Positions 2,609 through 57,932 of a stretch of DNA of 64,000 nt are shown piece by piece. Below the pieces are notes generated by a model. The model worked only from the letters and a program-made list of their open reading frames with translations. It ran no database searches and was not told where the DNA came from. Made by a program: the position numbers and the translations under genes. Within the stretch, counting starts at the first letter, position 1, and the number at the start of each line of letters is the position of its first letter. Source of the DNA: an uncultured bacterium (GTDB taxonomy: Bacteria; Patescibacteriota; Saccharimonadia; UBA4664; SCTI01); contig CAVRJJ010000001.1 of NCBI GenBank assembly GCA_963721685.1, positions 303,950 through 367,949 on the forward strand. Reading direction: 5' to 3'.

Positions 2609-5431
2609 GTGCACTATAGAACTGGCCAGTTCCGTTTGGGGAGTTATATGGATATTCTAGGGAATGTCTTAATCGCCGTTATTCAAATTATCGGAACGGT
2701 TTTATTTACCTATTACGGCTGGGTTGTAGTCGTTGGTTTTTTCCTCTTTCTTATCTGGCAAAATCGCCGGCGGGAACAGTGGGTGGGCAAAATCGAACAT
2801 GTCCTTCTCCACATTGAAGTACCAAAGGAGAATGAAAAGAAAGAGCTGTCGGCTGAGCAGATGTTTGCCAGTCTGCATGGGATTTTACGTCCGAAATCAG
2901 ACCTAAGGAAAGAAGGGTCACTCCAAGAACACATCAGCTTTGAAATCGTAACTATCAACGACCAGATCCGGTTCTATGTATGGACACCGCGCCACCTGAA
3001 AAACTTCGTGGAAGGCCAAATTTACGCCCAATACCCGAATGTCCAGATTGAAGAAAGTAGCGCTGATTACGCCACCACCGAGCTGGGTTCAAGGCAGGCT
3101 TACACTACCGTGCTTGGCCTCACCAAAACCGAGGTACTCCCCATAAAAACCTTTCAATCATTTGAGGTTGACCCGCTTGCGGGGATTACCGCGACACTTG
3201 GCAATATGGAAGACGCCGGCGAAGAAATGTGGATTCAAATACTGGCCCGGCCAGTCGACGACGATTGGCATAAAAAAGGATTGGAATACATTGAAGATGT
3301 AAAAGCCGGGAAAACCTACGAACCCTTTGAGCAACGGATTTTTAAAGGCTTGCTCGCGATTCCAAGCTATATTTTCAGCAACTTTCTTGGCGCGTTGTTT
3401 ATCCCTCCCTCGGAAGTAAAGAAGGAGGAGAAAAAAGCCGACGCTATGTCTACCGGCCAGCAAGCCCTAGTGAAAGCGGCCGAAGAAAAAATTAATAAGT
3501 TGGGTTATGAAGTTTATATTCGTATTGTCTATCTGGGCAATGATCCCACGGTGGCACGTATGCGCAACCAAGCTATTATTGGCGGTTTCAAACAGTTTAA
3601 TACCACAAACCTTAATGGTTTCAATGTCGATTCAAGCAAGGAAGGCAGCGGGGGAGTAGACGCCTACCGGGCGCGGCTCTTTACCGATGATGGGGACATT
3701 CTTAATATTGAAGAACTAGCCAGTGTTTATCATTTACCCCATAAAAGCGTGGAAACGCCTAACATGGTATGGACCACCACCAAAACTTCCGAGCCGCCAT
3801 CTAATCTCCCAACTGAAACCAGCGCCGAACCCACTGCCATCAGCTTGTTTGCCGCTACCAATTTCCGCGGCAAGCAGCTTAAGTTCGGCATGAAGCGGAT
3901 AGACCGGGGGCGCCACCTTTACATCATTGGCCAAACCGGCACCGGTAAGTCCAAACTACTCAACCTGTTAACCTTATCCGATATTTATCACGGGGAGGGG
4001 ATGGCTATCATTGACCCCCACGGCGATTTCGCCACCGACATGCTGCAATATGTACCTGAACACCGCCTTCAGGACGTTATTTACTTTAACCCGACCGACC
4101 GGGACTTTCCTATAGCCTTTAACCCCCTAGAAGTTTATGACCAGTCCTTTAAAAACGACATTTCATCGGAAATGATCGGGGTATTGAAACGAATGTTTGA
4201 ATCCTGGGGTCCCAGGCTTGAATACATCCTGCGGTTCACCCTGCTGGCGCTGCTTGATTACCCCGACGCCACAATGCTGGGAATCACCCGCATGCTCACC
4301 GACAAGGAATTCCGAAAGAAGGTTATTAAGGAAATTAAGGATCCGGTGGTAAAAGCCTTCTGGGTTACCGAGTTTGCCTCCTGGAATGATAAGTTTGCCA
4401 ATGAAGCGGTAGCGCCAGTATTGAACAAGGTAGGCGCTTTCACCGCCAACCCGTTAATCCGTAATATCATCGGTCAACCCCGTTCCAGGCTCGATTTGCG
4501 TAAGATTATGGATGAAGGCAAGATTTTAGTGGTAAACCTCTCCCGCGGTCAAATAGGGGAAGATAACGCGAGCATTTTAGGCGCTCTCATGGTGACGAAG
4601 ATCCAGCTCGCGGCCATGTCACGGGCTAATATCCCGCTTGAGCAACGCCGACCCTTTTATTTGTATGTCGATGAGTTCCAGAACTTTGCCACCGAAAGTT
4701 TCGCCACCATCCTAAGTGAAGCCCGCAAATATGCGCTTAACTTAACCGTCGCTAACCAGTACGTCTCACAAATGCCGGAGGAGGTTCGCAGCGCGGTATT
4801 TGGCAACGTCGGTTCGATCGTAAGCTTCCGGGTGGGCGTAGATGACGCGCCGATCATCGCCAAAAACTTCGCGCCGCTGTTTGAGCCTGATGACCTTGGC
4901 AAACTCCATAATCAACATATATTAATAAATATGAGCATTGATGGAGAAAAATCCATCGCCTTTTCCGCTAAGACCCTGCGCATGCCGGACCCCGAAGCCG
5001 ATTTCACCGCCCAGCTCGTTGATTTAACCCGCGAACATTACGCTTCGGATAGGGCCAGCGTGGAACAGGAAATCTCGGAATGGACACTGGGTCAAGCCAC
5101 CACCGAGAAATCATCCGGCGATCAGGACGCTAAATCCGAATCTACGCCGACTGAACAAAAACCGAACACGTTTTTAGGAGGGCTGAAAAACCCTGAACCG
5201 CCACAACCAGCCAAGACCGCTCCCGCACATCAAGGCCAACAGGGAAGCAACAGGAGCAAAAGACGTGGAAAAGGCTCTGGCGGTGGCCAAAACGACCAGA
5301 AGGACAACAGGAGTGGCCAGCGGCAGCCGGTGGGCGCGGGGGCGCCGGTACGCATGGAAACGCAACAATCCCAGCAAGTAGTTCGTCCCGGGGAGAGCGT
5401 AGCAGTGCGGCGCGCAGTTGAGGAACAGTAG
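2609..5431 (+). CDS. Membrane-anchored TraD/TraG/VirD4-family (type IV coupling protein-like, FtsK/HerA superfamily) ATPase with a long Gln/Gly-rich disordered C-terminal tail. An alternative start is at 2654.
   Basis: Two N-terminal TM helices. Walker A is IIGQTGTGKSKLLNLL and Walker B is YLYVDEFQNF. A TraG-D_C-like motif (FGNVGSIVSFRVGVDDAPIIAKNF) is present. The C-terminal roughly 150 aa is low-complexity. Confidence 0.6.
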   Translation: MHYRTGQFRLGSYMDILGNVLIAVIQIIGTVLFTYYGWVVVVGFFLFLIWQNRRREQWVGKIEHVLLHIEVPKENEKKELSAEQMFASLHGILRPKSDLRKEGSLQEHISFEIVTINDQIRFYVWTPRHLKNFVEGQIYAQYPNVQIEESSADYATTELGSRQAYTTVLGLTKTEVLPIKTFQSFEVDPLAGITATLGNMEDAGEEMWIQILARPVDDDWHKKGLEYIEDVKAGKTYEPFEQRIFKGLLAIPSYIFSNFLGALFIPPSEVKKEEKKADAMSTGQQALVKAAEEKINKLGYEVYIRIVYLGNDPTVARMRNQAIIGGFKQFNTTNLNGFNVDSSKEGSGGVDAYRARLFTDDGDILNIEELASVYHLPHKSVETPNMVWTTTKTSEPPSNLPTETSAEPTAISLFAATNFRGKQLKFGMKRIDRGRHLYIIGQTGTGKSKLLNLLTLSDIYHGEGMAIIDPHGDFATDMLQYVPEHRLQDVIYFNPTDRDFPIAFNPLEVYDQSFKNDISSEMIGVLKRMFESWGPRLEYILRFTLLALLDYPDATMLGITRMLTDKEFRKKVIKEIKDPVVKAFWVTEFASWNDKFANEAVAPVLNKVGAFTANPLIRNIIGQPRSRLDLRKIMDEGKILVVNLSRGQIGEDNASILGALMVTKIQLAAMSRANIPLEQRRPFYLYVDEFQNFATESFATILSEARKYALNLTVANQYVSQMPEEVRSAVFGNVGSIVSFRVGVDDAPIIAKNFAPLFEPDDLGKLHNQHILINMSIDGEKSIAFSAKTLRMPDPEADFTAQLVDLTREHYASDRASVEQEISEWTLGQATTEKSSGDQDAKSESTPTEQKPNTFLGGLKNPEPPQPAKTAPAHQGQQGSNRSKRRGKGSGGGQNDQKDNRSGQRQPVGAGAPVRMETQQSQQVVRPGESVAVRRAVEEQ

Positions 5432-26145: not shown

Positions 26146-27273
26146 ATGCATTACTTAGCAATCTTGGGAAGACAGCCGGAGTTTGGCCTGGTTGAGCTTG
26201 AGTCGCTCATAGGGTCCGGAGGGTTAACCCCGTTTGGCAAGGCCGCGGCGGTACTTGACCGCGAACTGGATTTAAACCGGTTGGGCGGCACCCAAAAATT
26301 GGGGCGTGTCCTCTACCGCGGACCGGTACGCGATTTAAATGAAACTCCGCTTTCCCTTGATGACCTGCCTTTACGCACCGCCAAAACCAGTTTTGGCTTG
26401 AGTTATTACGGCTCCGGCTTTACCCAGCGATATGTTATGGCGGCCGGGCTTACGCTAAAAAAACGTTTGCGCTCAAAGGGCTCAATGCGCTTTGTCGTTC
26501 CTCAAGTTGGCACCCACTTAACGGCCGCGCAAGTCAAGTTTAATAGCTTAATTCGTGATGGGTTTGAGCTGATGGTCGCCACCCATAAAGGCGAAATGAT
26601 TATTGCCCAAACCGAGCAAATCCAGGACATCGACTGGTACGCCGTGCGAGACTACCAGCGACCTACCCGCAGCGCCTCAGTTGGCATGCTCCCGCCAAAG
26701 CTGGCCCAAATTTTAGTCAACACCACCACGGCCCCGTTGGTTTATGACCCGTTTGCCGGCACCGGCGTTATCTTACAGGAAGCACTTCTATTAGGGCGGT
26801 CGGCTCGCGGGTCAGACCTTTCACCCGAAATGATTGAGGCCACCAAAGAAAACCTCACGTGGCTCGGAACCCAACGCCCGGATTTGCGCCCGTGGTCGGT
26901 AGAGCTGGCTGACGCCCAGACCCTGGCCCTGCCCGATGAGCCGTTAGCAATCGTCAGCGAAGGTTACTTAGGTCCTAATATGAGCAAGCAGCCGATCCCA
27001 GCCGATATTACCCGTTTGCGCGCTGAGCTCGGGGAACTTTACTTGAAAAGCCTCATCAACTGGGCCAAGCAGCTGCCAAGCGGAGCTGAGGTCAGCATTA
27101 CCGTGCCCATGTGGCGGACACGGGAGGGCTGGCAGAACCTGGATATTATTGACCGTTTACCTGGTTTAGGCTATAATTTGGAAAGTTTCAAGCATGCTGA
27201 TAGCCGAAAGCTCGACTATCACCGCCCCAACCAAATTGTGGGGCGCCAGCTATTAATATTGAGGAAGCAGTAA
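26146..27273 (+). CDS. Putative RNA (N2-guanine/N6-adenine) methyltransferase, UPF0020/THUMP-associated class.
   Basis: DPFAGTGVILQEA is an RlmL/Trm-type motif I-like (DPFCGSGT). Confidence 0.5.
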   Translation: MHYLAILGRQPEFGLVELESLIGSGGLTPFGKAAAVLDRELDLNRLGGTQKLGRVLYRGPVRDLNETPLSLDDLPLRTAKTSFGLSYYGSGFTQRYVMAAGLTLKKRLRSKGSMRFVVPQVGTHLTAAQVKFNSLIRDGFELMVATHKGEMIIAQTEQIQDIDWYAVRDYQRPTRSASVGMLPPKLAQILVNTTTAPLVYDPFAGTGVILQEALLLGRSARGSDLSPEMIEATKENLTWLGTQRPDLRPWSVELADAQTLALPDEPLAIVSEGYLGPNMSKQPIPADITRLRAELGELYLKSLINWAKQLPSGAEVSITVPMWRTREGWQNLDIIDRLPGLGYNLESFKHADSRKLDYHRPNQIVGRQLLILRKQ

Positions 27274-29724: not shown

Positions 29725-30892
29725 CTACCGCTTTAATTCCTGCAGCGCACGGTCCAACTGTGGATCGCGGCCAGCGCTAAAGTCCTCAGGCGTTTGTTTA
29801 ACTTCAATGTCCGGCTTGATCCCAACCTTATCAATACCCTTGCCGCTGGGAGTAAACCAATGGGCTACGGTAATTTTAACCTGGGCACCGCCATCCAACT
29901 TTATTACTTCTTGGACACTGCCTTTGCCAAAACTCTTTTCGCCAATAAGCTTGGCCTTGATGTTATCACGTAACGCCCCCGCCACAATTTCACTTGCCGA
30001 TGCGCTGCCGCCATTAATTAATACCACTACCGGCAGCCCTTCAAGCGCCCCATTACCGGTACTGGTAAGTTTCGTCTGGCTGCGGCCATTCTTGCGTTCA
30101 TCCACTACCACCTTGCCCGCCGGTACAAACTGGCTTACCACGTCTACCGCCGCCGACAAGTAGCCGCCCGGATCATTTCGGACATCCAATACAATTCCCT
30201 TTACTCCCTGGGCTTTAAGCTCGCTAGCAGCCTTATTCATTTTTTCCGAGGTGTCGTCGCCAAAGGTAGAAATTTTAATATAACCAATACCGCCTTCTTT
30301 CATGCTCCAGGTCACACTTGGTACATCAATAACCTCCCGGGTAATCGTTAAGCTCCAACGGTTGGTTGCTGCCGCGTAGTACCGTTAAGGTTACCTTGGT
30401 ACCGGCCTTGCCCCGGATCTTTGCGACCGCTTCGTCGACGGTGTAGGAGGAAGTATCTTTTTTATTAATTCCGGCAATATAATCCCCGGCACGTAAACCG
30501 GCTTTTTCAGCTGGCGCTCCGGCAATCGGGGAAATTACGGTGAGCTTGTTGTTTCGAATACCGATTTCCGCGCCAATACCCGAAAGGGTGCCGCTTAACT
30601 GGTCCTGCAAATCCTTAGCGTCTGAGGCATCCAAGTAAACCGTGTAGGGGTCCCCGGTGGAGCTTATTAAACCGGCCCGGGCTCCATCCAAGACTTTAGC
30701 GCTATCGATTTTACCGTCATACCGGCGTTGCAACAAATCGTAGGTATCGTTTAAGCTTTCAAAATCCAAAGGCTGATGCCCAATTGACCAGGTATGAGGA
30801 ATGACTTTAGGCGCGGCTTGGCCGCCTACAAAAGCAATACCGGCAACCAGTATCGGCACAATAAGCCCTAATTTACGACCGCGTCGCTCCAA
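29725..30892 (-). CDS. C-terminal processing (S41, Ctp/Prc-like) peptidase. Its PDZ domain (30326-30892) and S41 catalytic domain (29725-30315) are in different frames, a +1 frameshift near 30345-30352.
   Basis: One frame gives PDZ (GIGAEIGIRNNKLTVISPIAGAPAEKAGLRAGDYI). The other gives S41 (IGYIKISTF...VLINGGSASASEIVAGAL...EKSFGKGSVQ). Confidence 0.8.
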
Positions 30893-33930: not shown

Positions 33931-34944
33931 TTACCGGCCCTGGGCTAAGTGGCCGTACAGGGTTTCCAGTCCACCGCCATGGTTGATAACCACATGCTCG
34001 CCATATCCGGAGTTATCGGCACCGCTATAACTAACCGTACCGTTTGCCGCCGCGTAAATGGGTGCGCCAAAATAAGCGCCGAGGTCAATGCCCGTATGAA
34101 AACTGTAAGCCGCGGCCCAGTTAGGCTTACCAAACTCCTGGTTGGTGCTATACCCGCTGTCCAGCGGCCAGCGCAGCCGGCTTTGGAAATTACGAGGGTT
34201 TACCGGCGTACCGTTTTGGCGCACTTCAAAATGCAAGTGGGTGCCGGTTGAATAGCCGGTATTGCCCTGGAATCCAATTACCTCACCGGCAGCTACCCTA
34301 TCGCCTGCATGTACCACCCGGCCGCCGTAGCTGGCCAGCTTCTTCTTAAGCTCCGCTCGGGCAGCGTTTATTTGGCCAAGCTGGTTTTCCGCCTGCGCGC
34401 GGGCATAAACGAGACCGTTTTGTTGGGCAGCAAGGTTGGCGGTAAGCTTGTTTAACTCCTGAGCCTTGACTTCATGCTGCTTTTTGGCCGCAAGAATAGT
34501 GTTGACGGTTTCCGAGATCTTGTCGCTGATACTTTGTAAATACTGCTCACGGTCAACAAAGTCAGAAAGATTTTCGGCCCCAACCAGCTCTTCAAGCTTG
34601 GTTTGGTTGGTTGACTGGTACTGAGCACGCACCAGCTCACCTAGTTTGGCTTGTCCAACTGCCATCCGGGCTTTGGCATCAGCAATAGCAGCGTTGGTGT
34701 TGGCAATCTCGCGCTGCGTATGCCTAATTTGCGCTTCAACCGTGGCAATCTGATTATCAACATTATGGATATGGGCTTCGGTTTCAGCCGCGTGGACGTT
34801 GGCGGAATGTAATTGGTTGCGGGTGTCGCTCGCTTCGTTGGCGATTGCCATAGTTGGTGCTAATAGTACTAATAAGACCGTTACTGCCTTCGTCCGCATC
34901 CCCATTTGTTGCCCTCCAGCTAAGTATCCCCACAAACCTCTCAC
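33931..34944 (-). CDS. EnvC-like coiled-coil protein with an M23 (LytM) peptidase domain whose halves are in permuted order.
   Basis: Signal peptide plus coiled coil. Motif order is G.TGYSTGTHLHFE (HxH) before HTGIDL (HxxxD); the C-terminal ...YGHLAQGR is contiguous in normal M23 with VVHAGDRVAAGEVIG, which occurs about 100 aa earlier. Confidence 0.7.
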   Translation of the reverse strand: MRGLWGYLAGGQQMGMRTKAVTVLLVLLAPTMAIANEASDTRNQLHSANVHAAETEAHIHNVDNQIATVEAQIRHTQREIANTNAAIADAKARMAVGQAKLGELVRAQYQSTNQTKLEELVGAENLSDFVDREQYLQSISDKISETVNTILAAKKQHEVKAQELNKLTANLAAQQNGLVYARAQAENQLGQINAARAELKKKLASYGGRVVHAGDRVAAGEVIGFQGNTGYSTGTHLHFEVRQNGTPVNPRNFQSRLRWPLDSGYSTNQEFGKPNWAAAYSFHTGIDLGAYFGAPIYAAANGTVSYSGADNSGYGEHVVINHGGGLETLYGHLAQGR

Positions 34945-38228: not shown

Positions 38229-39200
38229 TCACCGTGGCCGGTCGGCGCCCGAGCTCGCCGGGGGATCCCGGTTGAAGACCTTCCGCACGATGCGGAGCTT
38301 CTTCTTCGAGCACTCGAACTTGCCGGTAACCGTCACGGTCTTGTTGCCGTAGGGACGGGCGCCATGTCCACGGAAGTCACCGGCACGAATGACCCACTTG
38401 AAGGGCCTGCCGTACTGAGTGGCTCCGAACTGGCGTCCGTCGACCTTCAGCTTCACCTGCGTCAGGTAGCGGGTTCCCGCTCCCTTCAGACGAAAGGTGA
38501 TGGTTCCGCGCGGGCTCTTGGGAGCCTGATGCGGGGTCCATACGAGCTTCACGGCTCCGCGCCTGTCGACGCACTTCGTCGTCCTCTTCGGCTTCGGCTT
38601 GGCCTTGGCCTTCGGAGTTGGAGTGGTGGTCGTCGGCGGGAGGCCCGGCGGGTGCGCGATGTACGTGTTGCACGAGTTGTTCGTGCAGTAGTTGGTGCAC
38701 GAGTACTTCGTGCAGATCTCGGTGTTGCACGACTGCACCGCGCAGTTGACCTGCGTGTTGCACGAGTCGCCAACGCACTTCACCGTGTCACCCGGAGGGG
38801 GCGGCGGCGGTGGGGGCGGCGGCGGGGGCGGCGGCGGTGGTGGCGGCGGCGGCGGAGTGCCGGGCTGCTTCGCACAGACGAACGCGCCCGCGTTGTACGT
38901 GATGTTGACCTCGGGGAACGAGTAGCTCTTCTCGAAGATGAGCTCCGAGTAGTAGTTGGTCTTCATCTCGTACCGCAGCGTGGTGTTGTACTCGTTGTTC
39001 GGTCCCGGGTACGTCCCCAGCTCGTCGGCCCTCAGAAGGAGGCCGGTGCGGTTGGGGTTGCCGGCATACGTCGGCGCGGGCGACCCGTCGGGACACGTCG
39101 AGGCCATGGCCACGGGTGCCGCGAAGAGCATCATGGCAAGGGCCATGAGCACGATCGCGATCCTCGCGACCGGATTGGTCTTACGGGTACGGCGGGTCAT
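38229..39200 (-). CDS. Secreted protein with signal peptide, a 22-residue poly-proline tract, Cys-rich SCNT/CT(K/N)Y micro-repeats and a Lys-rich segment. It is the cargo of the GC-rich element.
   Basis: ATG at 39200 is preceded by an AGGAGG RBS 7 nt upstream. The N-terminus MTRRTRKTNPVARIAIVLMALAMMLFAAPVAMA is a signal peptide. The track ORF start (39437) is a read-through of the terminal repeat. Confidence 0.65.
   Translation of the reverse strand: MTRRTRKTNPVARIAIVLMALAMMLFAAPVAMASTCPDGSPAPTYAGNPNRTGLLLRADELGTYPGPNNEYNTTLRYEMKTNYYSELIFEKSYSFPEVNITYNAGAFVCAKQPGTPPPPPPPPPPPPPPPPPPPPPGDTVKCVGDSCNTQVNCAVQSCNTEICTKYSCTNYCTNNSCNTYIAHPPGLPPTTTTPTPKAKAKPKPKRTTKCVDRRGAVKLVWTPHQAPKSPRGTITFRLKGAGTRYLTQVKLKVDGRQFGATQYGRPFKWVIRAGDFRGHGARPYGNKTVTVTGKFECSKKKLRIVRKVFNRDPPASSGADRPR
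38795..38858. repeat. GGC/GGG simple-sequence repeat encoding the poly-Pro tract (reverse strand).
   Basis: ggggcggcggcggtgggggcggcggcgggggcggcggcggtggtggcggcggcggcgg. Confidence 0.8.
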
Positions 39201-39646
39201 TCCAGACCTCCTGGTCGGTAAATGGAGCAACGTGGCTCCAGAATCCCCAATGCACTCATGAGAGTACACTAGTCCTGATCGTCCACGTTGCAGGGCGATG
39301 GTCAGGATCCTACCGATGTTGCGTAATTGGCGCAGCAACATGAGCAGAGTCCTGACCATCAAATAACCGATATCCAGAAAACCTGTAGCAATAGTCGGAA
39401 TTGGGTCTTGAAGACCCATGACTATCCAGCTTGTCAAAGTTCCCTATGAAAGACCGGCTGGTTTCCACCTCACCTACGTCTCGCAGAGTAATGACACGTA
39501 ATATATCATGCTTATGCAATTTTGTCAAGGAGTTGATGGTAAAATGTCTATGATTTATGATCAGATTAGGCGATCTGGAGATTATTGCTTATGCAAAATA
39601 CCGAATTATCTATTGGGAATATGCCTAAAAGATAGCGCTTTAGGCG

Positions 39647-42256: not shown

Positions 42257-44836
42257 TTACCGGCGCTTTCGCTTTTTGGCCCGCCGGGCAGCCCGGTTTT
42301 CACTTGAAGCTGAACCCCCTCCATCTGAGCTGGGGGCGGCCGCCTGGGAGGTGTCGCTGTTAACTTGTGCCAACTGGGCGGCTTTGGTCATGGCTGTTTC
42401 AACCGGCTGTTCTGCTGGAACGTGGCTAATTTGGGCCCGTAAAACGGTACCGGCCACTTCGGCTTCAATCAGCGAAAGCAGGCGCTTAAATAACCGAAAG
42501 CCCTCGCCTTTATACTCAACCAACGGATCGCGCTGTCCAATTGCCCGCAAGCCTATACCTTCGCGTAAGCGGTCCATAGCCTCCAGATGCTCAATCCAGA
42601 GCCGGTCAAGAACCTGCAGGTAAACCATGCGCTCCAGCATGCGCATATGGTCGGGTGAAAATTCTTTCTCACGCTGGTCGTACAGTTGGCTGGCGTAATC
42701 ACTCAGCACCGCGGGCAAGTCGCGCGGATCGGCCGATTGGAGCGCGGTTTTAACTTCCGGACTGAGCGGCATCAGGGTTTCGGTTTGCTCAATAATTTTT
42801 TCAACCTCAACCACCGCGGTCCGCACATCGGTATGGGCGGTCACCAATGCCTTAAACTCGGTAGTAAGCATGGGTTCAATATCTTCACGGAGGTTGGTAG
42901 ACTTTAAAGCTTTGCGGCGCCGGGCATAAATAACCTCACGATGTTTGTTCATAACATCGTCATACTCGACCAACTGTTTACGGATATCAAAGTTATGGCC
43001 TTCAACCTTTTTCTGGGCGCTTTCCAGACTGCGGCTGACCACTGGGCTTTCCAGGGGAGTATTATCATCCAGGCCCAGTGTTTGCATGAGATTGGCTACC
43101 CGCTCGCCGCCAAAAATGCGCATTAAGTCATCTTCAAGTGAAACGTAAAACCGGGTGGAACCGGGATCGCCTTGACGCCCGGAACGTCCACGCAACTGGT
43201 TGTCAATTCGGCGGGACTCGTGGCGCTCGGTACCAACCACATGCAAACCGCCCAGCTTAGCAACGCCGTCACCTAACACAATATCGGTACCACGACCGGC
43301 AATGTTGGTAGCCAGGGTAACCGCCCCTTTTTGGCCAGCCGCCGCGACAATGGCGGCCTCCTTTTCGTTGTTTTTAGCGTTTAACAACTCGTGGGGAACC
43401 TTAGCTTGGTGTAAAAGCTCAGACAGGATTTCATTCTTAGCGATAGAAACCGTACCCAGCAGAACCGGTTGGCCCTTTTGGTTGCGCTCCTTAACGTCTG
43501 CCACGACCGCGTTAAACTTCCCCATTTCGGTGCGGTAGATGCGGTCGGGCTGATCCTGGCGAATCATGGTCTGGTGGGTTGGAATTGTTGTGACTTCCAG
43601 CTGGTAAATTTTACCAAACTCCTCTGCCTCGGTAGCGGCCGTGCCGGTCATACCTGATAGCTTTTCATATAAGCGAAAATAGTTCTGGAAGGTAATGGTA
43701 GCTAAAGTTAACGACTCTTTCCGAATCTCCACCGATTCTTTAGCTTCAATTGCCTGGTGCAGGCCATCACTATAGCGCCGTCCGTGCATCAGGCGGCCGG
43801 TGAATTCATCCACAATAATCACCTCCCCTTCACGCACTACATAATCGCGGTCTTTTTTAAAGAGGGCTTCGGCTTTCAAGCTTTGTTCCACGTGGTGGAC
43901 TTCCTCGATCATGCCGGCTTCATAGATATTTTCTACCCCGAGCGCTTTTTCCAGTTTACGAATACCATCGTCGGTTAAGCTAGCCGCCTTCTGCTTTTCG
44001 TCCAACGTATAGTCATCGGTGATTTTGAGGCCGCGGGCAAGGACGGCAAACTGAATATACTTTTCGGTGCTTTCTTCGGCTGGAGCGGAAATAATCAAGG
44101 GCGTGCGGGCTTCATCAATTAAGATGGAGTCAACTTCGTCGACAATCGCGTAGTGCAGGGGCCGCTGAACCATCTGTTCACTATCGGAAACCATGTTATC
44201 TCGCAGGTAATCAAACCCGAACTCATTGTTGGTTCCATAGGTAATGTCGGCGTTATAAGCTTCTTGGCGGCTCACCGGACGTAAGTGCTTCAGGCGCTCG
44301 TCGTCAGCGGTTTCGTCGAAGTACTCAGGATCATATAAATAGGCGGACACCCCGAAGGTGGCGCTTGGCACAATAATGCCAACCGACATGCCTAAAGCCT
44401 GAAAGACCTGCCCCATCCAGCCGGGATCGCGCCGGGCCAAATAATCGTTAACCGTGACAACATGAACCCCTTTTCCGGTGAGAGCGTTCAAATAGGCAGG
44501 GGCGGTTGCCACCAAGGTTTTACCTTCCCCAGTGCGCATTTCGGCAATTTTGCCATCATGTAAGACACTGCCGCCAATAAACTGCACATCGTAATGGCGC
44601 AACCCGATGGTACGCCGGGAGGCCTCGCGCACGGTGGCAAAGGCTTCCGGAAGGATGTCTTCCAGTGTTTTACCATCCTTTAGCTTGCCGCGAAGCTTTT
44701 CGGTTTGGGCTTTTAGCTTAGCGTCACTCAACCCCTTGAGCTTAGCTTCAAGCGCGTTGGCTTGGTTAACCTTGAGTTGGGCTTTTTTAATTTCCCTCGC
44801 GTCGGGGTCGCCAAAAATGCGTTTTAACAGATTCAT
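42257..44836 (-). CDS. secA: Preprotein translocase ATPase SecA.
   Basis: SecA DEAD motor and PPXD domains over 859 aa, with a basic C-terminal tail. Confidence 0.92.
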   Translation of the reverse strand: MNLLKRIFGDPDAREIKKAQLKVNQANALEAKLKGLSDAKLKAQTEKLRGKLKDGKTLEDILPEAFATVREASRRTIGLRHYDVQFIGGSVLHDGKIAEMRTGEGKTLVATAPAYLNALTGKGVHVVTVNDYLARRDPGWMGQVFQALGMSVGIIVPSATFGVSAYLYDPEYFDETADDERLKHLRPVSRQEAYNADITYGTNNEFGFDYLRDNMVSDSEQMVQRPLHYAIVDEVDSILIDEARTPLIISAPAEESTEKYIQFAVLARGLKITDDYTLDEKQKAASLTDDGIRKLEKALGVENIYEAGMIEEVHHVEQSLKAEALFKKDRDYVVREGEVIIVDEFTGRLMHGRRYSDGLHQAIEAKESVEIRKESLTLATITFQNYFRLYEKLSGMTGTAATEAEEFGKIYQLEVTTIPTHQTMIRQDQPDRIYRTEMGKFNAVVADVKERNQKGQPVLLGTVSIAKNEILSELLHQAKVPHELLNAKNNEKEAAIVAAAGQKGAVTLATNIAGRGTDIVLGDGVAKLGGLHVVGTERHESRRIDNQLRGRSGRQGDPGSTRFYVSLEDDLMRIFGGERVANLMQTLGLDDNTPLESPVVSRSLESAQKKVEGHNFDIRKQLVEYDDVMNKHREVIYARRRKALKSTNLREDIEPMLTTEFKALVTAHTDVRTAVVEVEKIIEQTETLMPLSPEVKTALQSADPRDLPAVLSDYASQLYDQREKEFSPDHMRMLERMVYLQVLDRLWIEHLEAMDRLREGIGLRAIGQRDPLVEYKGEGFRLFKRLLSLIEAEVAGTVLRAQISHVPAEQPVETAMTKAAQLAQVNSDTSQAAAPSSDGGGSASSENRAARRAKKRKRR

Positions 44837-44869: not shown

Positions 44870-45256
44870 CTAGTCTTCAACCGGCTCCGGAAGCGGTGTT
44901 CGCCCCATTACCTTGGCCATTAAACGTTGGCGGCGATTTTTGGCCGGCTCATGTTTGCTCTTATAGGTAAGGGCTTGGCTTTTAAGTTTTTGCTCACATA
45001 TATCAATGGCGGCGTACATATTAATAGTTGATTCATGAGCCTTAAGCTGCTCACCCTTTACCTCAAACTGCACCTCGCAGATACAGCGCTGGTCTTGCGG
45101 TAAGGCCTCATTGCATTCCAAAATAACGGTACCGGCCAATCCGTCGCGGACATGGCGCGGCAAATACCTATCTAAGCCACCTAATTTTTTATCAATATAC
45201 TCAATGATTTTGTCATCAAGCTCATAATGCCTGCCGGTCGTTTGCAATACAATCAT
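44870..45256 (-). CDS. hpf: Ribosome hibernation promoting factor / RaiA (short form).
   Basis: The 128 aa carry the YfiA/HPF fold signature. Confidence 0.75.
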   Translation of the reverse strand: MIVLQTTGRHYELDDKIIEYIDKKLGGLDRYLPRHVRDGLAGTVILECNEALPQDQRCICEVQFEVKGEQLKAHESTINMYAAIDICEQKLKSQALTYKSKHEPAKNRRQRLMAKVMGRTPLPEPVED

Positions 45257-45298: not shown

Positions 45299-46603
45299 TT
45301 ACAACTGAGTTCCACCGTAATAGGATTGCAGAACCTCGGGAACTCGAACTTCACCTGCTTCCGTCTGATAATTTTCAATAATCGCGATCAAGGTGCGTCC
45401 CATGGCAAAAGCGGTGGCATCGTTGGTGTGGCCAAGCTCAATTGAACCGGAATCGGTTCGTATTCGGGTTTGTAGGGCACGCGTTTGATAGTCGGAAATG
45501 AAGTCGGCGCTGTGGGTTTCCCGGTACTTGTCCTGGCCCGGCAACCAGGTGTTAATATCCACGCCCCGGGCGTTGGGCTTACCAATATCGGCGGTGCATT
45601 TCATGATTGCCTGATAGGGCAATCCAAGCTGCTGCATCAGATACTCTTGGATGGCGACCATAAACAAGTGCTCATCCAGACCGGCATCGGCGGTGGTAAA
45701 GCTTTCCATCTCCATCTTGTCGAAGTGATGCATTCGAAAAATTCCCTCCATGTCCTTACCATAGGTGCCGGCTTCCCGGCGGAAGCTGGTCGCGTAGCCG
45801 ACGTAACGAATAGGCAGGTCGGCTTCCGCTAAAATTTCATCCTGGTACATCGCGCACAGGCTGTGCTCGGCGCTGCCGTTAAGCCATAGGTCGTCATCTT
45901 CAAGTTTGTAAGTAACCTCAGCCCCGTTTAAGCGTCCAGTAGCCTCATAGACCTCGGTGCGGATCATCGGGGGCGGTAAAACCGGAGTGAAGGGTTTAGT
46001 GCTGACATTCAACCCAGCATCGACGGCGATTTGCTTAAGTTTATCTTCGTCGGTTAAGACACTCAAGCCAAACTGCATTAAGGCAAACTGCAAACGTACC
46101 AAGCTGCCTTTGATATAGGCAAAGCGCGAGCCGCTAACTTTAGCGGCCCGTTCTTTATCGATCCAATCGTGAGCTTCAGCCAGCTGCCAGTGGTTTTTCG
46201 GCTTGAAATCAAAGTGCGACTTTTCACCAACGGTTTTTGCAACCACATTGTCATCTTCGCTTTCCCCTACCGGGACATCATCGGTGGGCAGATTGGGGAT
46301 TTGCTTAAGAATAGCTTGGAACTCGGTATCTACCTTAGCCAAGTCAGCTTCAAGTTTGCCAATCTCATCTTTGAGCTTTTTGCCTTGCTCAATCTGAGCA
46401 GCCTCAGGCTTGGCGGATTTGGTGGTAGCCGCTAGCTCGTTACGCTGCTGGCGGAGCGTATCAACTTGTTCGGTTAGCCCGCGGCGCTGTTGGTCGAGTT
46501 CTATTAAGTGGTCGATGTCCTCCGCGCCCACAGAAGCGTTTTTATTTTTAGCGGCGGCCTTCACGGCTTCCGGATTTTCACGAACCAGTTTTATGTCGAT
46601 CAT
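45299..46603 (-). CDS. serS: Serine--tRNA ligase.
   Basis: N-terminal coiled-coil arm plus class II motifs. Confidence 0.9.
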   Translation of the reverse strand: MIDIKLVRENPEAVKAAAKNKNASVGAEDIDHLIELDQQRRGLTEQVDTLRQQRNELAATTKSAKPEAAQIEQGKKLKDEIGKLEADLAKVDTEFQAILKQIPNLPTDDVPVGESEDDNVVAKTVGEKSHFDFKPKNHWQLAEAHDWIDKERAAKVSGSRFAYIKGSLVRLQFALMQFGLSVLTDEDKLKQIAVDAGLNVSTKPFTPVLPPPMIRTEVYEATGRLNGAEVTYKLEDDDLWLNGSAEHSLCAMYQDEILAEADLPIRYVGYATSFRREAGTYGKDMEGIFRMHHFDKMEMESFTTADAGLDEHLFMVAIQEYLMQQLGLPYQAIMKCTADIGKPNARGVDINTWLPGQDKYRETHSADFISDYQTRALQTRIRTDSGSIELGHTNDATAFAMGRTLIAIIENYQTEAGEVRVPEVLQSYYGGTQL

Positions 46604-46695
46604 AGTGGGCTTATTATAGCAGGTTTAATGAGTCGCCGACCCGAGCAAAGCCTTAAACATGACGAAGCCCCGCGGAGGGGCTCTCGACGGCTTCA

Positions 46696-47926
46696 TCAGC
46701 CGTACTTCGCCATGCCCGCAGGGCATTGTATTTCAGAGCAACCGCACCACATAGATATGCGGGTGGGCCTCCAGCTCTGTGACCAACTCGTCCGGTACGC
46801 GTTCGTTGAGATCGAAGACCGAGTAGGCCAACTCGTCCTTTGAGACGTTCCCCATGTCCTCGATGTTGAGCTCCGTACTTGGCGATGATCGCGGTGAGCT
46901 CGCTCAGTATGCCTTCCGTCGTTGGCGTGGACGATGGTCAGCCGATGCTCGGAAGCCCGCGACAGAACGAGATCGGGCAGGTTGACAGCATTCCTGACGT
47001 TGCCATGTTCGGCGAAATCGATCAACTGTCGCGCAGCCATGACCGAACAGGCCGCTTCCGCCTCGGCGGTGGAACCACCGATGTGCGGCGAGACCACCAC
47101 GCAGGCATGACCCGCTAGTGCCTGCATCCGGTAGGTCGGTGAGATACCTCCCCACCTTGCCAGCATTGAGCGCGTCGATCAGTGGTTCCGTCTGAACCAA
47201 CTGTGCCCGAGCCGTGTTCACGAGCATCACGCCCGTCTTCATGAGCTCGAACTCGCGCGGGCCAATCATGGCGTCGGTCCGCGGTCCGCCAGGTACGTGC
47301 AGCGACACCACGTCGCTGCGGCGAAGCAACTCGCTCGAGGCTGTCAACGAGTTCAACGCCCACGTACTCGAGGAACTCGCGAGCATCAGCGCTGATCCCC
47401 GGGTCGTACCCGAGGACGTTCATACGCAATCCGGCATGAGCTCGAATGGCCACCCATCGCCCGATATTGCCGAGACCGACAACGCCAAGCGTCCGATGGC
47501 GCAGCTCGAAACCGGCAAAACGCTTCTTGTCTTTTTCTGCGCTGGACCGGAAAGCCGTCGTCAGTGCCGTGTTCGGCGACATAGGCGAAGGCTTCGGCGA
47601 GCTTGCGCGCCCCGATCGTAATGAGTCCCAGCGTGTGTTCCACCACTCCGTTGGCGTTAGCGCCGGGGGTGTTTGGACGCCACCACACCTCGCTGGCTCA
47701 AGACAGCGAGAGGGAGGTTGTCGACACCGGTTCCAGCGCGGGCAAGCGCGATGACGCTTGCGGGCACCATCTCCGGCACCTCAAGGTATCCGCGATATGA
47801 GCGCAGCAGGATCAACAGCGGGTTAGGTTCCCGCTGGTCAGGATCGCAGGTGTACCCCGCGTCCCTCAGCAACTGCAAGCCGTCACGACCGATTTCATTG
47901 TGAAGACGTACGATCATTCCCCTCAC
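46696..47926 (-). pseudogene. Decayed D-3-phosphoglycerate dehydrogenase / D-isomer 2-hydroxyacid dehydrogenase (serA-like) gene in at least 5 frame-fragments on GC-rich (about 62%) DNA.
   Basis: Overlapping minus ORFs carry a PGDH N-terminal domain, a GxGxxG NAD site (VGLGNIG), ESDVVSLHVP...LMK...LVNTAR and HIGGSTAEA motifs in different frames. Confidence 0.65.
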
Positions 47927-48021
47927 CTCCGAGGGTCAGGCCACAGAACGTGGCATTTTCCAGAGAACCTTCCTATTTAAGCATAGTACAGAGGTTTGCT
48001 AAAGAGACACTGGGCTAAAGA

Positions 48022-48462
48022 TTATTTCGAAAGATCATAGCGAAACACGGTGGTACCATAAGGCTCAAAGCCGTGTTTTTGGTAGAGCCGCCAGGCAGCT
48101 TCGCGCTTTGGGTTGGACTGTAGTTGAAGCTGATGGGCACCCTTATCTTTAGCGGTGGCTATACTGGCTTCAACCAAGGCGTCCCCTATCCCCTGTCCCC
48201 GGAAATCGGCGTTTACCACCACATCTTCAACGGTTGATTTCAGTTTGCCGTCGATGGCCGGAACGACGACTACCGTAGTCATGCCGGCAATAGCACCGTC
48301 AACGTAAGCAACCAGTAGCGTGTTAGCTTCGTGCGCTAAAAACTGCTCAAGGCTTTCCTGCGTAGGTTTAGGACGGTTAGCGCTCAGCTGGGGCATCAGT
48401 ACTTCAGCCGCGGCCCGCAGCTCCTCGGTAGCCTCCGTTGCAACTTCAACTGTTACTGCCAT
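48022..48462 (-). CDS. GNAT family N-acetyltransferase.
   Basis: Acetyl-CoA motif RGQGIGDALV. Confidence 0.8.
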   Translation of the reverse strand: MAVTVEVATEATEELRAAAEVLMPQLSANRPKPTQESLEQFLAHEANTLLVAYVDGAIAGMTTVVVVPAIDGKLKSTVEDVVVNADFRGQGIGDALVEASIATAKDKGAHQLQLQSNPKREAAWRLYQKHGFEPYGTTVFRYDLSK

Positions 48463-48464
48463 TT

Positions 48465-50018
48465 CTAACCCTCCAACTTTAAACGTTTAACTAACCAATC
48501 CCGGTCGAGGCTTGCTAGGAACCAGCCAGCTTTGGGGCCGTATTCTTTACCTAAGATAACACGATAGAGCGCCGCGAACCCCTCCCGAGGGCCAACTTCC
48601 GCTTTCTCGGCAGCGGCGTAGATGAGCAAATGCATTTCCCGGCCGTTTAGGTCGCCTTCAAAGGTTTGGATTGCGTCGGCTAGCTTTGCGAGAAATGTTT
48701 TTTGGACAGCGCCCAATTCTGCTCGCGGAAGCTTTTCCTGAACACTAAATTTAACCACATCGGGCGCGTAATGCTCCAGCCAGTTATGGACGAACGGCAA
48801 CTCTTGAAGAATAATATCCTTCTCGGTTTTGACAGTATCGCCATAGCCGGTGCGCTCCAGCGTGAGTAAGGTTTGCTCGGGATCACCCTGGGCCGCCTGG
48901 TAGACCTGTACTAAATGCTTAAAGGAAACACTGGATATTACCCGGTCGGTTTTACCGGCCACCGCGAACTCATAGGCGTCCCGGAACGGGTGGGTGGAGT
49001 CGTTCTGAGCCGCCGCGAACTCATCAATGAGGTTGAAGAGGCCTAAGCCTGTAGCAAAAATAAGGAGCTTTTCTGGACGCGAACGAACAATAAAATAGCG
49101 CAAAATTTCAACCGGCATAACCTTAAGCACCTCTTTGGGTGTAATAACATTCCCAGCCGACTTGCTAATTTTTTTAGTTTGACCGGCTTGGTTAATAAAC
49201 TCATACGGGACCGGCATAGGGGCTTGACCGCCAAAAACTTGCTCAACAATCGCCCTTCCGGTGTCATAGGATCCACCTTTTGTGGCGTGATCGCGCCCAA
49301 ATGGCTCAACATTTACGCCCCACATCCACCACCTGGCCGGCCAGTCGATACGCCAGTCCAACTTTACCCTGCCTTCTGCGTAAGAAAGCTCCCCCTCCTT
49401 GCCGTCAAGGGCGCGGTAGGTAACAATTTGCCGTTCTGTATCGTGCCCGCTATAAATCCATTCGTTAAGACGACCGGAATCACTGAGCAGCTGAACCGGT
49501 CCCCAGTCGGCCGACAACTTGCGATGACTAACGGTTTCAATAATCTCGCGGATTTCTTGTGTTTGCTTAAGGACTTTCTCGATAGCGGCGGTGTAACGAT
49601 GTTCTTTCCCGTAGGTGGTAGATGCGCGATATGATTCATCAGGCTCAAAACCGGTTGCTTGCGTGGCCGCGACCAAGTCATTATAAAAATAATCAGCGTA
49701 AGAACTACCGGGCTTAGGACTCTCTGCCAAATAAAGTGGCTTACCCAGTTCCGACTGAATCGTTTCTGGAAGGTCTGCCGGAATCTTACGCAATACATCG
49801 AAATCGTCAACAAAATCAAGATGAGTAGCTTCGCGGCCACGCTCCCGCAGGGCCCACGTTAGGGCGCTAGCAGTGGCAATTTCTCGAATAGTTCCGATGT
49901 GATAAACACCGGAAGGTGAATGTCCACTAGATACCGTAATAGTACCTTCCGGATATTTGGAAACAATATCGTCAGCGGCTAGATCAAGCCAATATTTACT
50001 GCTGGATTCGCTAGTCAT
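48465..50018 (-). CDS. lysK: Lysine--tRNA ligase, class I.
   Basis: HIGH-type motif SGHSPSGVYHIGTIRE and KMSKS-type KISKSAGN. Confidence 0.8.
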   Translation of the reverse strand: MTSESSSKYWLDLAADDIVSKYPEGTITVSSGHSPSGVYHIGTIREIATASALTWALRERGREATHLDFVDDFDVLRKIPADLPETIQSELGKPLYLAESPKPGSSYADYFYNDLVAATQATGFEPDESYRASTTYGKEHRYTAAIEKVLKQTQEIREIIETVSHRKLSADWGPVQLLSDSGRLNEWIYSGHDTERQIVTYRALDGKEGELSYAEGRVKLDWRIDWPARWWMWGVNVEPFGRDHATKGGSYDTGRAIVEQVFGGQAPMPVPYEFINQAGQTKKISKSAGNVITPKEVLKVMPVEILRYFIVRSRPEKLLIFATGLGLFNLIDEFAAAQNDSTHPFRDAYEFAVAGKTDRVISSVSFKHLVQVYQAAQGDPEQTLLTLERTGYGDTVKTEKDIILQELPFVHNWLEHYAPDVVKFSVQEKLPRAELGAVQKTFLAKLADAIQTFEGDLNGREMHLLIYAAAEKAEVGPREGFAALYRVILGKEYGPKAGWFLASLDRDWLVKRLKLEG

Positions 50019-50039: not shown

Positions 50040-50513
50040 TTATTCGATATGAGAGATTTTGAAGACCATTTCCCCGGAAGGGACTGTGAGCATAATTTCC
50101 TCGCCCTTGCTTTTGCCCATGAGAGCTTGGCCGATGGGCGACTCATTGGATATTTTACCTTCGGTAGGATTTGCTTCAGTTGAACCCACAATGGTATAAA
50201 CCTGTTTACCGTTTTCAATTTCAAGATGGACGGTAGATCCGATGCTGACTTGAGACTTCTTCTTGGGAGCTTCAATAATCACGACGTTTCGCAGGATGTG
50301 TTCTAGCTCGGAGATACGGCCTTCAATAAAAGATTGGTGGTCTTTGGCGGCATCCCATGAGGCGTTTTCGCTGAGGTCGCCAAATTCTTTAGCTTCTTTC
50401 AGCTCTTGAGCTACCTTTAAGCGTTGGTTTTTTACAAGATCCTCCAGCTCGGCCTTAAGCTTTTCCGAGCCTTCTTTGGTAAGATAAAAATCTTTTTTTG
50501 CGGTCGCATCCAT
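50040..50513 (-). CDS. greA: Transcription elongation factor GreA.
   Basis: N-terminal coiled coil with acidic tip, plus the C-terminal FKBP-like domain. Confidence 0.88.
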   Translation of the reverse strand: MDATAKKDFYLTKEGSEKLKAELEDLVKNQRLKVAQELKEAKEFGDLSENASWDAAKDHQSFIEGRISELEHILRNVVIIEAPKKKSQVSIGSTVHLEIENGKQVYTIVGSTEANPTEGKISNESPIGQALMGKSKGEEIMLTVPSGEMVFKISHIE

Positions 50514-50708: not shown

Positions 50709-52744
50709 CTACTTTACGCAGCCGCCAGGACGGCTGAAACACCACTGCAGTGTTTCGCGGACAGCCGGCGCGGCATATTGGGCGCCTTCGCCAGAATTCT
50801 GGATTAGAACTACCATTTCAATTTGAGGATCATCGTAGGGCGCAAAAGCCGTAAACCACGCGTGTGGCTTACGTTTTCCGTTGGGATCGGTTTCAGCCGT
50901 GCCGGTTTTTGCGGCCACCGCCACTGGCACCGATTCTTCAATTTTGCAGCACGCGGTACCGTAAGGCCGGTTCACCACCTCGCGCATAGCCCGTTTAACA
51001 AGGTTTAAATGGCTGGCCTCAATAAAGTTCTCATCCTGAATTTTTACTTGTGCCGAGCGGGTAACCACACCATTATCGCCAGTCAATTCCTTAAAGAAAT
51101 GCGGCTCGATGACTTTTCCCCCGTTCGCGATCGCGGCCTCAGCAACCGCCATTTGCAGTGGTGAGGCCAGCAAGTCGCCTTGCCCAATCGAAATATTATA
51201 GGTATCACCCACGGTCCAAGGTTCGCCGCTGAACTTTTGTTTCCACTCGGGCGTAGGAATCCGTCCGGCGGTCTTTTCCGGAAGGTCAATGGCGGGCAGC
51301 TTGCCTAAGGCCAAATTTATTGTAGTAGGTGGTTAGCTTGGAGACACCGAGACCGGCAATATTCCCATAACCGCCGCCGACCGTGTAAAAGAAGACATCC
51401 GAACTGACAGCGATGGCTTTTGATAAGTTTACCGCGCCATGCCCGCCCGGATCATACGAACGGTAGGTATATTTAATGGACGGGTCATACTTATTGGTTA
51501 TAACAATTGAACCAGTATCGTTAACGGTGGTATTGGGGCTAATTGCCCGCTCCTGAAGCGCCGCCGAACCAATCAGCGGTTTAATAATCGATCCAACGGG
51601 ATATGCTCCGGCAATGGCTTTGTTGAAAAGTGGTTGCGCGGCATTCTTCACTAGCTTTTGGTAATCTTCCTGCCCAATACCCCGCGCGAACAGGTTGTTA
51701 TCGTACCCCGGCAGGTTAACCACCGCCAATACTTCGCCGTTTTTTGGGTTAAGGGCAACTCCTGAAGCCTGGGACGCGCCGCTGGCCTGCATTTGGGCCT
51801 TAATGGCATCGGTAAGCTTATGCTGCAGCTCCATATCAATAGTTAAGGTTAAATTAGCCCCGGCTTTGGCCGGGCGTGAAGCCAGCAGCTTTATAGGCCG
51901 ACCAGCGGCATCAACTTCGGTCTGTTCAATCCCATTCTGGCCTTTTAGCAAATGCTCATACTGCTTCTCGATCCCCAGTTTTCCAATAAAATCGGTGGAC
52001 TTATAGTTAGGGTCGGCATCAAGGTCAGCCTGGCTCACCCGGCCGGTGTAACCCAGTATGGCCGAAAGCGTATCGTCGTTATACTGGCGGATTGGGTTGG
52101 TATCCAAGCTAAATCCCGGGAGCGAACCTGAGGCCTGGTCAAAGGCTAGCCATCGGTCCCGTTCAACATTACTTGCCACTAGACGCGCCTGAGGGTTCCG
52201 TAAGCAAGCAGCCAGTGCAACTTCAGGCTTTTTACGGCCGGCTATTTCGGCCGCTTGGCACTCTCCTTCTGCCTTAGCCGCTACGTCAGACGCGGGAACC
52301 CCCAGAAAGCCCTCCTACCGTGCTATAGAGCCGCTGCCGGGCCGCAGAATCGGTTTGGGGCAGTAGACTTGGTGTAACGGTAATGTCCACACTGGCTAAG
52401 TTTTCCGCCAAGACTGCTTTGTTACGGTCATAGATTATACCGCGCGGGGCCCGGGTGACCTTTTCGCGCAAGCGGTTGCCGTCCGCCAATCCCAAATTGC
52501 GCTGGCCTTGAACCAGCTGAAGGTGCGCGAGTTGGGCAATCAGAATTAAGGCCCCCAACACAACCAGCACAGCTACTATTACTAGCGGGCGCTTGCTCGT
52601 GGGGGTTTCAATTACACCGGCCGCGGCATCGGCCGGCAATATCGCGTCCGCCCACTGCTCGTGGCCCCCTTGGTCGCGTTTGATAGTAACCCGATCCTTT
52701 TGGGGATGTGCCTCGCCGCCATACCCAAACAACGATTTGCTCAC
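50709..52744 (-). CDS. mrdA: Penicillin-binding protein 2 (elongasome transpeptidase) split into three frame-fragments (52286-52744, 51286-52179, 50709-51314). There are two +1 frameshifts, near 52298-52311 and 51294-51300.
   Basis: Fragments carry the N-terminal TM/pedestal, the middle region (SIIKP = SxxK) and the C-terminus (KTGTAE) in order. The middle fragment's frame is open across the first stop, and the third fragment starts at TTG inside the second. Confidence 0.8.
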
Positions 52745-57211: not shown

Positions 57212-57932
57212 TTACTTTTGGTTAAGTGCCATGTAGGCAAGATAGTTATTAAGCATATGAATGCCGATGCCAGGGATGGTTGAACCCAACCGGACATACA
57301 AAAAACATAATAGCAGCCCAAGGATGAAGGTGTACACGCTTACATTTAATTGCAGGTGCGCCACCGCGAACAATAAACTTGAAACGACGGCGCCGAGCAC
57401 CACCCCAAAGCGCTTGGCAAAAGCCGGAAACATAAAGCCGCGAAAGACAATCTCTTCGATAATAGGAGGAATAATGACCAGCGCCCACAAGCTAAGCAGG
57501 GAAGGGACTTTTTGTAAACTCATTGGTTTGGGGTTCTGCCGGATCAAATGCCGGATAGATCAGTTTTACCAGTATATCGGCGGCGAAAACCAACAATCCA
57601 AAACTTATAAATAGTAAAAACACATATAAAAGCGCCTTTGCAATTGAAAATGACTTAAGCCCCAGCGCCGAGACGCCCACCTTATATTTGCGCATAAAAT
57701 AGCCAATGATCACCAGCGAACCTACCACATCTACCACCACAAGCGCAAAGGCGGCGAAAGGGCTACCAGCATCAAGCGCATTCAGGAACGTGTTAAGACC
57801 AGGGAAATAGATTGAGGCCGCTCCTATGCCAACCAGCAACAGGACGGGCAACAGCACCCAGGGCACAATAAAGAGGAGCAGCGCCTGGCCCAACGTCCAT
57901 GGAGCTGATCGTATCGCGGCCGAATACGACAC
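57212..57932 (-). CDS. CPBP-family (CAAX) intramembrane metalloprotease in two frame-fragments; +1 frameshift near 57505-57515 (A5 run).
   Basis: The N-fragment holds TM helices. The C-fragment carries EExxxR (IIEEIVFRG) and FxxxH (FAVAHL) motifs, and the fragments overlap by 56 nt. Confidence 0.7.

Follow-up and report, generated by a model that had tools for sequence, protein, structure and literature searches.

A SerA-like dehydrogenase gene with six +1 frame changes in the lysS-serS slot of a Saccharibacteria genome: a probably horizontally acquired gene whose breaks may be consensus errors

We analyzed a stretch of 64,000 nucleotides (nt), here called the window, from an uncultured bacterium (assembly GCA_963721685.1, contig CAVRJJ010000001.1, positions 303,950 to 367,949 of the forward strand), in which a gene for a SerA-like dehydrogenase lies in pieces between a GNAT acetyltransferase gene and serS (Table 1). 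All genes surrounding the dehydrogenase are on the minus strand. Six overlapping minus-strand open reading frames (ORFs) of 40 to 160 amino acids (aa), at 47657-47926, 47386-47688, 47115-47582, 46904-47386, 46696-47166, and 46733-46855, are consecutive pieces of one protein; removal of six bases restores a gene of ∼392 codons (ATG, 47917-47915; TGA, 46735-46733), and the restored path contains no stop codon. A preliminary description of this DNA, made by reading its letters, had recognized a serA-like dehydrogenase in overlapping minus-strand fragments beside serS. The stitched translation bears this out: it matches PF02826 (2-Hacid_dh_C) with 126.8 bits (cut-off, 25.1) and PF00389 (2-Hacid_dh) with 50.7 bits (cut-off, 24.6), and the thresholds of the D-isomer-specific 2-hydroxyacid dehydrogenase superfamily are passed only with the six extra bases removed.

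The restored protein retains the characteristic motifs of this superfamily: GLGNIG...VLGYD (GxGxxG and the downstream acidic residue), the Arg of NTARA, and the His of SPHIGGST all match invariant columns in an alignment of 120 homologues. Its top PDB matches are D-3-phosphoglycerate dehydrogenases, including Escherichia coli SerA (1psd) over residues 54 to 390, and its C-terminal tail aligns with E. coli SerA to residue ∼406 and with the tails of homologues; the Pfam ACT profile scores 21.4 bits on the stitched tail, under its gathering score of 27. Its two best NCBIfam families are phosphoglycerate dehydrogenase equivalogs, both under their cut-offs (TIGR01327, 229.7 versus 454; NF008759, 179.7 versus 404). 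Judged by sequence, the part of the D-2-hydroxyacid dehydrogenase superfamily that suits the protein best is the E. coli-type, ACT-tailed group of D-3-phosphoglycerate dehydrogenases, of which it would be a divergent member; with scores under the SerA equivalog cut-offs, its substrate is presumptive. Neither serC nor serB was found among the window ORFs (64 kb) scanned against Pfam.

The composition of the gene is foreign to its surroundings. Guanine-cytosine (GC) content is 0.60 to 0.63 over 46800-47800 versus ∼0.51 in the flanks, in agreement with the preliminary description. The restored coding sequence has a GC content of 0.613 and a GC content at third codon positions (GC3) of 0.743, compared to 0.45 to 0.54 and 0.48 to 0.58, respectively, in neighboring genes. 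The steps are sharp, lying at ∼46640 (0.62 to 0.42, on the serS side) and ∼47960, and the serS promoter-proximal sequence GCTATAATRAGCCCACTATG, which directly adjoins the GC-rich segment, is shared with the relative L162.

We used serS as the anchor gene both for placing the organism and for finding syntenic loci. The host is a Candidatus Saccharibacteria genome (Saccharimonadales): its SerS is 55 to 70% identical to SerS from many Saccharibacteria metagenome-assembled genomes, with L162 (82%) as the best other relative. No second genome of the same species was found; GTDB species representatives reach at most 70% SerS identity, and L162 reaches 82%. A GreA-LysS-[slot]-SerS-HPF-SecA backbone is conserved across Saccharibacteria, and the slot between lysS and serS, 0.7 to 7 kb long, carries cargo genes that differ between relatives. 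No dehydrogenase homologue lies at the serS locus in any of 80 related loci, nor in L162, whose slot carries an inositol monophosphatase gene; the GNAT acetyltransferase gene is likewise missing from the slot in relatives. A candidate GC island in the same slot of L003 was rejected because the entire L003 locus has ∼60% GC. One mildly new fact is that the lysS-serS slot serves this clade as a site of variable cargo. Many Saccharibacteria (L005, L013, L022, L023, and L026; e.g., L022:8211-8996) have a conserved protein of ∼260 aa encoded directly upstream of serS, with the motif PGQ..YK.SRSKIELF..C.RCFWL..RLKI.RPSGPPFNINK; it is not in the slot of the window, L003, or L162.

Given the identity of the gene, its foreign composition, its place beside serS, and its absence from this locus in relatives, horizontal acquisition is the natural reading, and there is good support for the view that the gene was acquired into a variable slot. 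On this point the preliminary description finds support, the foreign composition and the absence from the 80 related loci and L162 speaking for it. Its further claim that the flanks carry motifs of an island family did not hold up: we found no flanking direct repeats or target-site duplication, and repeats of either flank elsewhere in the window were only chance matches of ≤12 nt.

Only one homologue in 5.8 billion proteins exceeds 44% identity: P0001, an intact 392-aa ORF on contig JASLFZ010000007.1 of GCA_030150485.1, which is 54% identical to the restored protein. A search for a donor among JGI metagenome contigs returned nothing >44% and none closer than P0001. The other homologues are annotated as phosphoglycerate dehydrogenases of 387 to 395 aa, share 38 to 44% identity, and come mostly from Pseudomonadota where the source is named. 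P0001 and the window copy align over their full length, are both 392 aa long, and share many departures from the family consensus (D66, V92, E180, L261, A301, H329, and others); unlike the window copy, P0001 is an uninterrupted ORF, and its neighborhood is a different one with nothing further in common with the window. The P0001 contig (L001) has 56.5% GC and the P0001 gene itself a GC content of 0.60; the gene is accompanied by genes encoding PAS, DinB-like, MarR, and MFS proteins. The MFS transporter is 61 to 66% identical to Saccharibacteria and Patescibacteria proteins, from which all its named relatives come; P0001 thus probably belongs to another Saccharibacteria genome. Close relatives of the window genome span 41 to 60% GC, which makes a GC-richer Saccharibacteria donor plausible. 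The presence of this rare dehydrogenase lineage in what are probably two Saccharibacteria genomes is also a mildly new fact. Given the Saccharibacteria/Patescibacteria-like MFS transporter on the P0001 contig, the lineage may circulate within the phylum.

Mapped against four homologues (P0001, P0002, P0003, and P0005) by frameshift-aware alignment, the gene shows six frame changes, every one net +1 nt. Alignment lengths favor a one-base insertion over a two-base deletion. At each site, alternative choices of the extra base score within 2 bits of one another with the family hidden Markov model, and no single base is singled out.

The window contains frame changes in other genes as well, found by mapping relatives' proteins onto it and then aligning in a frame-aware manner. 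Each affected gene (CTP synthase, an S41 Ctp protease, PBP2 [twice], a CPBP/Rce1-like intramembrane protease, and a peptide-chain release factor) is one uninterrupted ORF in relatives: Ctp protease is a single ORF of ∼410 aa in twelve relatives, and the PBP2 orthologue in L003 is a single 694-aa ORF. The shift in the CPBP/Rce1-like gene is backed by one distant relative only (score, 184). In the release factor, the N-terminal ∼37 residues (MDATAKQLHDLQ...LKELDKR) are in another frame; this is not the programmed +1 site of prfB, since the change is net −1, CTTTGAC is absent, and relatives are unshifted and themselves lack a programmed-frameshift site. The remaining window ORFs are full-length in a Pfam census. 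These 1-nt shifts in essential genes that are intact in relatives show that the record contains indel noise or very recent indels.

Shift density is 5.05 per kb in the dehydrogenase (six in 1.19 kb) versus 0.126 per kb elsewhere (six in 47.7 kb of assessable coding sequence). The preliminary description had placed the density, with at least four shifts, far above that of neighboring genes: the contrast stands at 40-fold, with six shifts, but the neighbors are not shift-free. The direction is net +1 in 6 of 6 cases in the dehydrogenase (P = 0.031) and in 11 of 12 window-wide (P = 0.006), which suggests a single process.

Table 1. Features of the dehydrogenase locus and frame changes in the window (bases in brackets, extra bases)
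Feature	Extent	Frame change at	Strand	Remarks
SerA-like D-2-hydroxyacid / D-3-phosphoglycerate dehydrogenase gene	46733-47917		minus	Three-frame translation, frameshift-aware alignment, Pfam, PDB matches
Shine-Dalgarno-like sequence	47919-47930		minus	GGAGGTGAGGGG; GGAGG core ending 8 nt before ATG; read from sequence
Frame change 1	47671-47681	~47674	minus	Net +1; ...RGVVAS / NTPGANANGV; context GCGTCC[A]AACACC
Frame change 2	47541-47577	47547-47577	minus	Net +1; ...AFAYVAEHGTD / ...SSAEKDKKRFAG
Frame change 3	47327-47337	47333-47336	minus	Net +1; ...VELVDSL / ELLRRSDVV; context CTCGAG[C]GAGTTG
Frame change 4	47115-47129	47125-47128	minus	Net +1; ...RYLTDLP / QALAGHACVVVSPHIGGST
Frame change 5	46910-46920	~46920	minus	Net +1; ...RLTIVHAN / EGILSELTAIIAK
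Frame change 6	46868-46882	46871-46880	minus	Net +1; ...AIIAKY / LNIEDMGNVSKD; context TACG[G]AGCTCAAC
Terminator-like GC hairpin	46665-46683		minus	GAGCCCC-TCCGC-GGGGCTT, then T-rich stretch; downstream of stop
Native serS upstream region	46604-46635		minus	TATAAT at 46613-46618; serS-side end of inserted segment
AT-richer spacer	47960-48021		minus	GC 0.42; GNAT stop to GC-rich segment; one segment boundary
GNAT acetyltransferase	48022-48462		minus	Intact; host-like composition (GC3 0.53)
Class-I LysS	48465-50018		minus	
GreA	50040-50513		minus	
SerS	45299-46603		minus	Intact
HPF	44870-45256		minus	
SecA	42257-44836		minus	
CTP synthase (pyrG)	27565-~29170	~29068	minus	Net +1; AAA[G]GTTAAC; first ~35 residues in another frame
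S41 Ctp protease (PDZ + Peptidase_S41)	29725-30892	~30355-30373	minus	Net +1; TTG[G]AGC; two ORFs
Peptide-chain release factor	35251-~36340	~36228	minus	Net -1; AAA CG. ATG GCC
PBP2 (PBP_dimer + transpeptidase), first shift	50709-52744	~52303	minus	Net +1; G4 to G5; three ORFs from both shifts
PBP2, second shift		~51309	minus	Net +1
CPBP/Rce1-like intramembrane protease	57212-57932	~57518	minus	Net +1; A4 to A5

A common motif was sought at the twelve shift sites: no k-mers were significant, and 7-mer sharing was at chance level. The 10-mer GGAGCTYAAC occurs twice in the 64 kb, at 46874 and 30356 (minus), in both cases at a net +1 site (dehydrogenase site 6 and ctp), and may be a candidate context-specific consensus error. 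An M23 peptidase ORF (33931-34944, minus) was not counted as a further shift, having no continuation in another frame; it ends at profile position 54 of 96 and may hold a LytM domain that is degenerate or naturally cut short, or it may carry a larger lesion. ORF 38229-39437 (minus), which is intact, forms a second GC-rich spot (GC3, 0.80). Its product is secreted, rich in Cys, and without a Pfam match, and contains a 23-proline tract; this may be a further surface gene of foreign origin or rapid evolution. The few plus-strand genes include 2609-5431, encoding a 940-aa HerA/TrwB-like ATPase (DUF87; type IV coupling protein-like), and 26146-27273, a DNA methylase-like ORF in which only the C-terminal part of N6_N4_Mtase matches.

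We examined the restored protein for decay by aligning it with the 120 homologues and treating as conserved those columns that are ≥90% conserved in the family. The window copy mismatches at 25 such columns and the intact P0001 at 23, and most of these mismatches are common to both. Lineage-specific changes at these columns, counted without residues ≤2 positions from stitched junctions, number six in each. In the window copy, lineage-specific changes fall on 6 of 86 at-risk columns in the highly conserved class and on 25 of 58 in the moderately conserved class (Fisher P = 5.5e-7); such avoidance of conserved columns is the pattern of purifying selection, not of drift. Restored length is that of P0001. 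The absence of stop codons is by itself weakly informative, the probability of finding none after 60 random substitutions being 0.25. Thus, two marks of a pseudogene are present, namely a frame disrupted relative to intact homologues and a foreign composition with patchy distribution, and the search for a third, the signature of relaxed selection (stops and excess substitutions at conserved sites), came out negative.

The explanation to which we give somewhat better than even odds is that of an acquired, intact gene whose six breaks are consensus errors concentrated by poor local quality. A complete, divergent SerA-type gene (E. coli-like and ACT-tailed) would have entered the variable lysS-serS slot by horizontal transfer, the donor probably being a different Saccharibacteria lineage with a higher GC content, and purifying selection would have acted on the gene throughout practically its whole history. 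The six +1 breaks would then be single-base insertion errors of the consensus, made by the same indel process as those in essential genes. Their concentration would reflect a locally poor consensus, for example, in a low-depth, strain-variable island or in a segment missed by short-read polishing. We infer both the error status of the shifts and the cause of their concentration in the dehydrogenase. The breaks match those in essential genes in both kind and direction, and the gene shows no other damage; one process, consensus insertion error, is therefore the most economical account. The gene's apparent ribosome-binding site and putative downstream hairpin are intact, and we count both for an intact gene; the hairpin is suggestive only, as such sites are no more numerous than expected from shuffling.

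Errors in long-read assemblies are mainly short indels that fragment genes, and insertion errors are linked to two- and five-base runs and to contexts like TCCA plus an extra A (PMC12007338). Frame change 1 reads TCCA[A]A and so matches the latter context. The contiguity of the record (a 405-kb contig in a metagenome-derived genome) would fit long-read assembly. The preliminary description had considered genuine erosion more likely than sequence error; the shifts in essential genes, the +1 bias, and the lack of decay at the substitution level point the other way.

Several observations weigh against consensus error. Foremost is the 40-fold local enrichment itself (Poisson P = 1.4e-8): consensus error alone does not explain it, and a local cause is needed. 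Long-read assembly indels are typically scattered (PMC12007338), whereas here they are concentrated in one gene. The dense shifts are also located exactly in a foreign gene that is probably dispensable, as true pseudogenization predicts. GC content was rejected as the cause, because the equally GC-rich ORF 38229-39437 (62.6% GC) is unbroken; GC alone thus fails to explain the density. At frame change 3, the extra base that fits best does not extend a run. Finally, the branch leading to the window copy is somewhat longer than that leading to P0001 (31 versus 17 changes; chi2 = 4.1), with the excess lying wholly in weakly conserved columns.

The strongest rival, to which we assign a clearly smaller yet substantial probability, is a true, very recent pseudogene left by a failed horizontal transfer, in which six real 1-nt insertions accumulated once selection had ceased to act, the housekeeping shifts being unrelated assembly errors. 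Saccharibacteria are not known to have amino-acid biosynthesis, and a lone serA would for that reason be useless; the dehydrogenase would have arrived without its pathway partners in an amino-acid-auxotrophic epibiont. A pseudogene explains naturally why the enrichment is confined to a probably dispensable gene of foreign composition; none of the relatives examined has the gene in its syntenic slot, and the mildly longer window branch would also fit. Moreover, prokaryotic pseudogenes include a disproportionate share of horizontally transferred genes (PMC522871). The pattern of damage, on the other hand, speaks against a pseudogene. Six indels occur with no stop, no larger deletion, and no excess of changes at conserved columns, which requires a substitution-to-indel ratio of ∼3:1 or less. 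In bacteria this ratio is usually ∼10:1; drift long enough for six indels would then be expected to leave about ten extra conserved-column changes, and none is seen. All six indels are net +1 (P = 0.03 even if indels were symmetric), and bacterial indel spectra are biased towards deletions. The match between this direction and that of the presumed errors elsewhere in the window would have to be fortuitous. Heavily disabled pseudogenes are the old and divergent ones in the genomes surveyed (PMC522871), whereas this gene carries 15 disablements per 1,000 residues in an otherwise pristine sequence.

Two further explanations appear improbable, and to about the same degree. In the first, a real, strong, lineage-wide mutational bias toward +1 insertions (for example, from loss of mismatch repair or proofreading) would have produced all twelve shifts, which would be tolerated as polymorphisms of the population that the consensus has caught, or rescued by slippage in transcription or translation or by systematic +1 recoding. 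The net +1 direction of 11 of 12 shifts agrees with this, and the background shifts can be read as short-run extensions (G to GG, G4 to G5, A4 to A5), a typical signature of slippage. However, broken pyrG, PBP2, and release factor genes are hard to square with viability, one shift is −1, and the orthologues in relatives are unshifted, with nothing conserved at these sites. As for rescue by recoding, the shift sites have no motif in common and do not coincide with stop codons or slippery heptamers; the two occurrences of GGAGCTYAAC differ in codon phase, which speaks against a signal read by the ribosome.

In the second, DNA of another organism would have been joined in by chimeric insertion or misassembly, with poor read support causing the shifts. 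The sharp GC steps at both ends speak for this, and the shifts are concentrated exactly within the GC-rich segment. Nevertheless, the segment comprises precisely one gene, which brings a ribosome-binding site and a putative terminator of its own; an intact native gene lies on either side, and the segment adjoins a native serS promoter region that is conserved with a relative. The slot carries different cargo in other Saccharibacteria, and the nearest homologue itself lies on a probable Saccharibacteria contig. A 1.3-kb insertion followed by perfect synteny would also be rare for an assembly chimera.

Least probable of all is that the twelve shifts are real and that the lineage tolerates or decodes +1 shifts (by transcriptional slippage, +1 ribosomal frameshifting, or quadruplet decoding), in which case the dehydrogenase, pyrG, PBP2, and Ctp protease would still be made full-length; programmed +1 ribosomal frameshifting and quadruplet decoding are disfavored because there is no shared motif in a fixed phase and no conservation in orthologues.

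The locus calls for caution in reading fragmented foreign genes: a cluster of frameshifts in such a gene looks like a textbook failed transfer, yet the same record carries shifts of one direction in essential genes. If the gene is intact, it represents a rare, divergent SerA-type dehydrogenase in an episymbiont lineage, shared only with one other probable Saccharibacteria genome, and it would modestly extend the accessory metabolism of a phylum regarded as lacking amino-acid synthesis. A truly dead gene would be a failed acquisition of an ordinary kind. Current understanding stands in either case.

Among known enzymes, the window copy most resembles E. coli-type (type II, ACT-domain) SerA (PDB 1psd/1yba; NF008759), with which it shares the substrate-binding domain, the Rossmann NAD domain (GLGNIG...D), and probably an ACT-like C-terminal domain (Pfam score below the gathering threshold), and it aligns end to end, at the identities given above, with the phosphoglycerate dehydrogenases of ∼387 to 395 aa that are common in Pseudomonadota. 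It differs from E. coli-type SerA in its equivalog scores below cut-off, in a frame broken six times, and in having no serC or serB nearby; serine synthesis is not known from the host phylum. Like the failed-transfer pseudogenes of prokaryotes described by Liu et al. in 2004 (PMC522871), it is anomalous in GC content and in composition by codon position, is missing from relatives, and has a disrupted frame; unlike them, it has no stops, truncation, or relaxed-constraint substitutions, and its disablements are of one kind and one direction. With the long-read assembly indels of the Kastor study (PMC12007338), it shares single-base indels that split otherwise intact genes, including core genes. 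A broken foreign gene belongs to the known category of failed transfers and artifactual fragmentation to the known category of long-read indels, so the case is ordinary either way.

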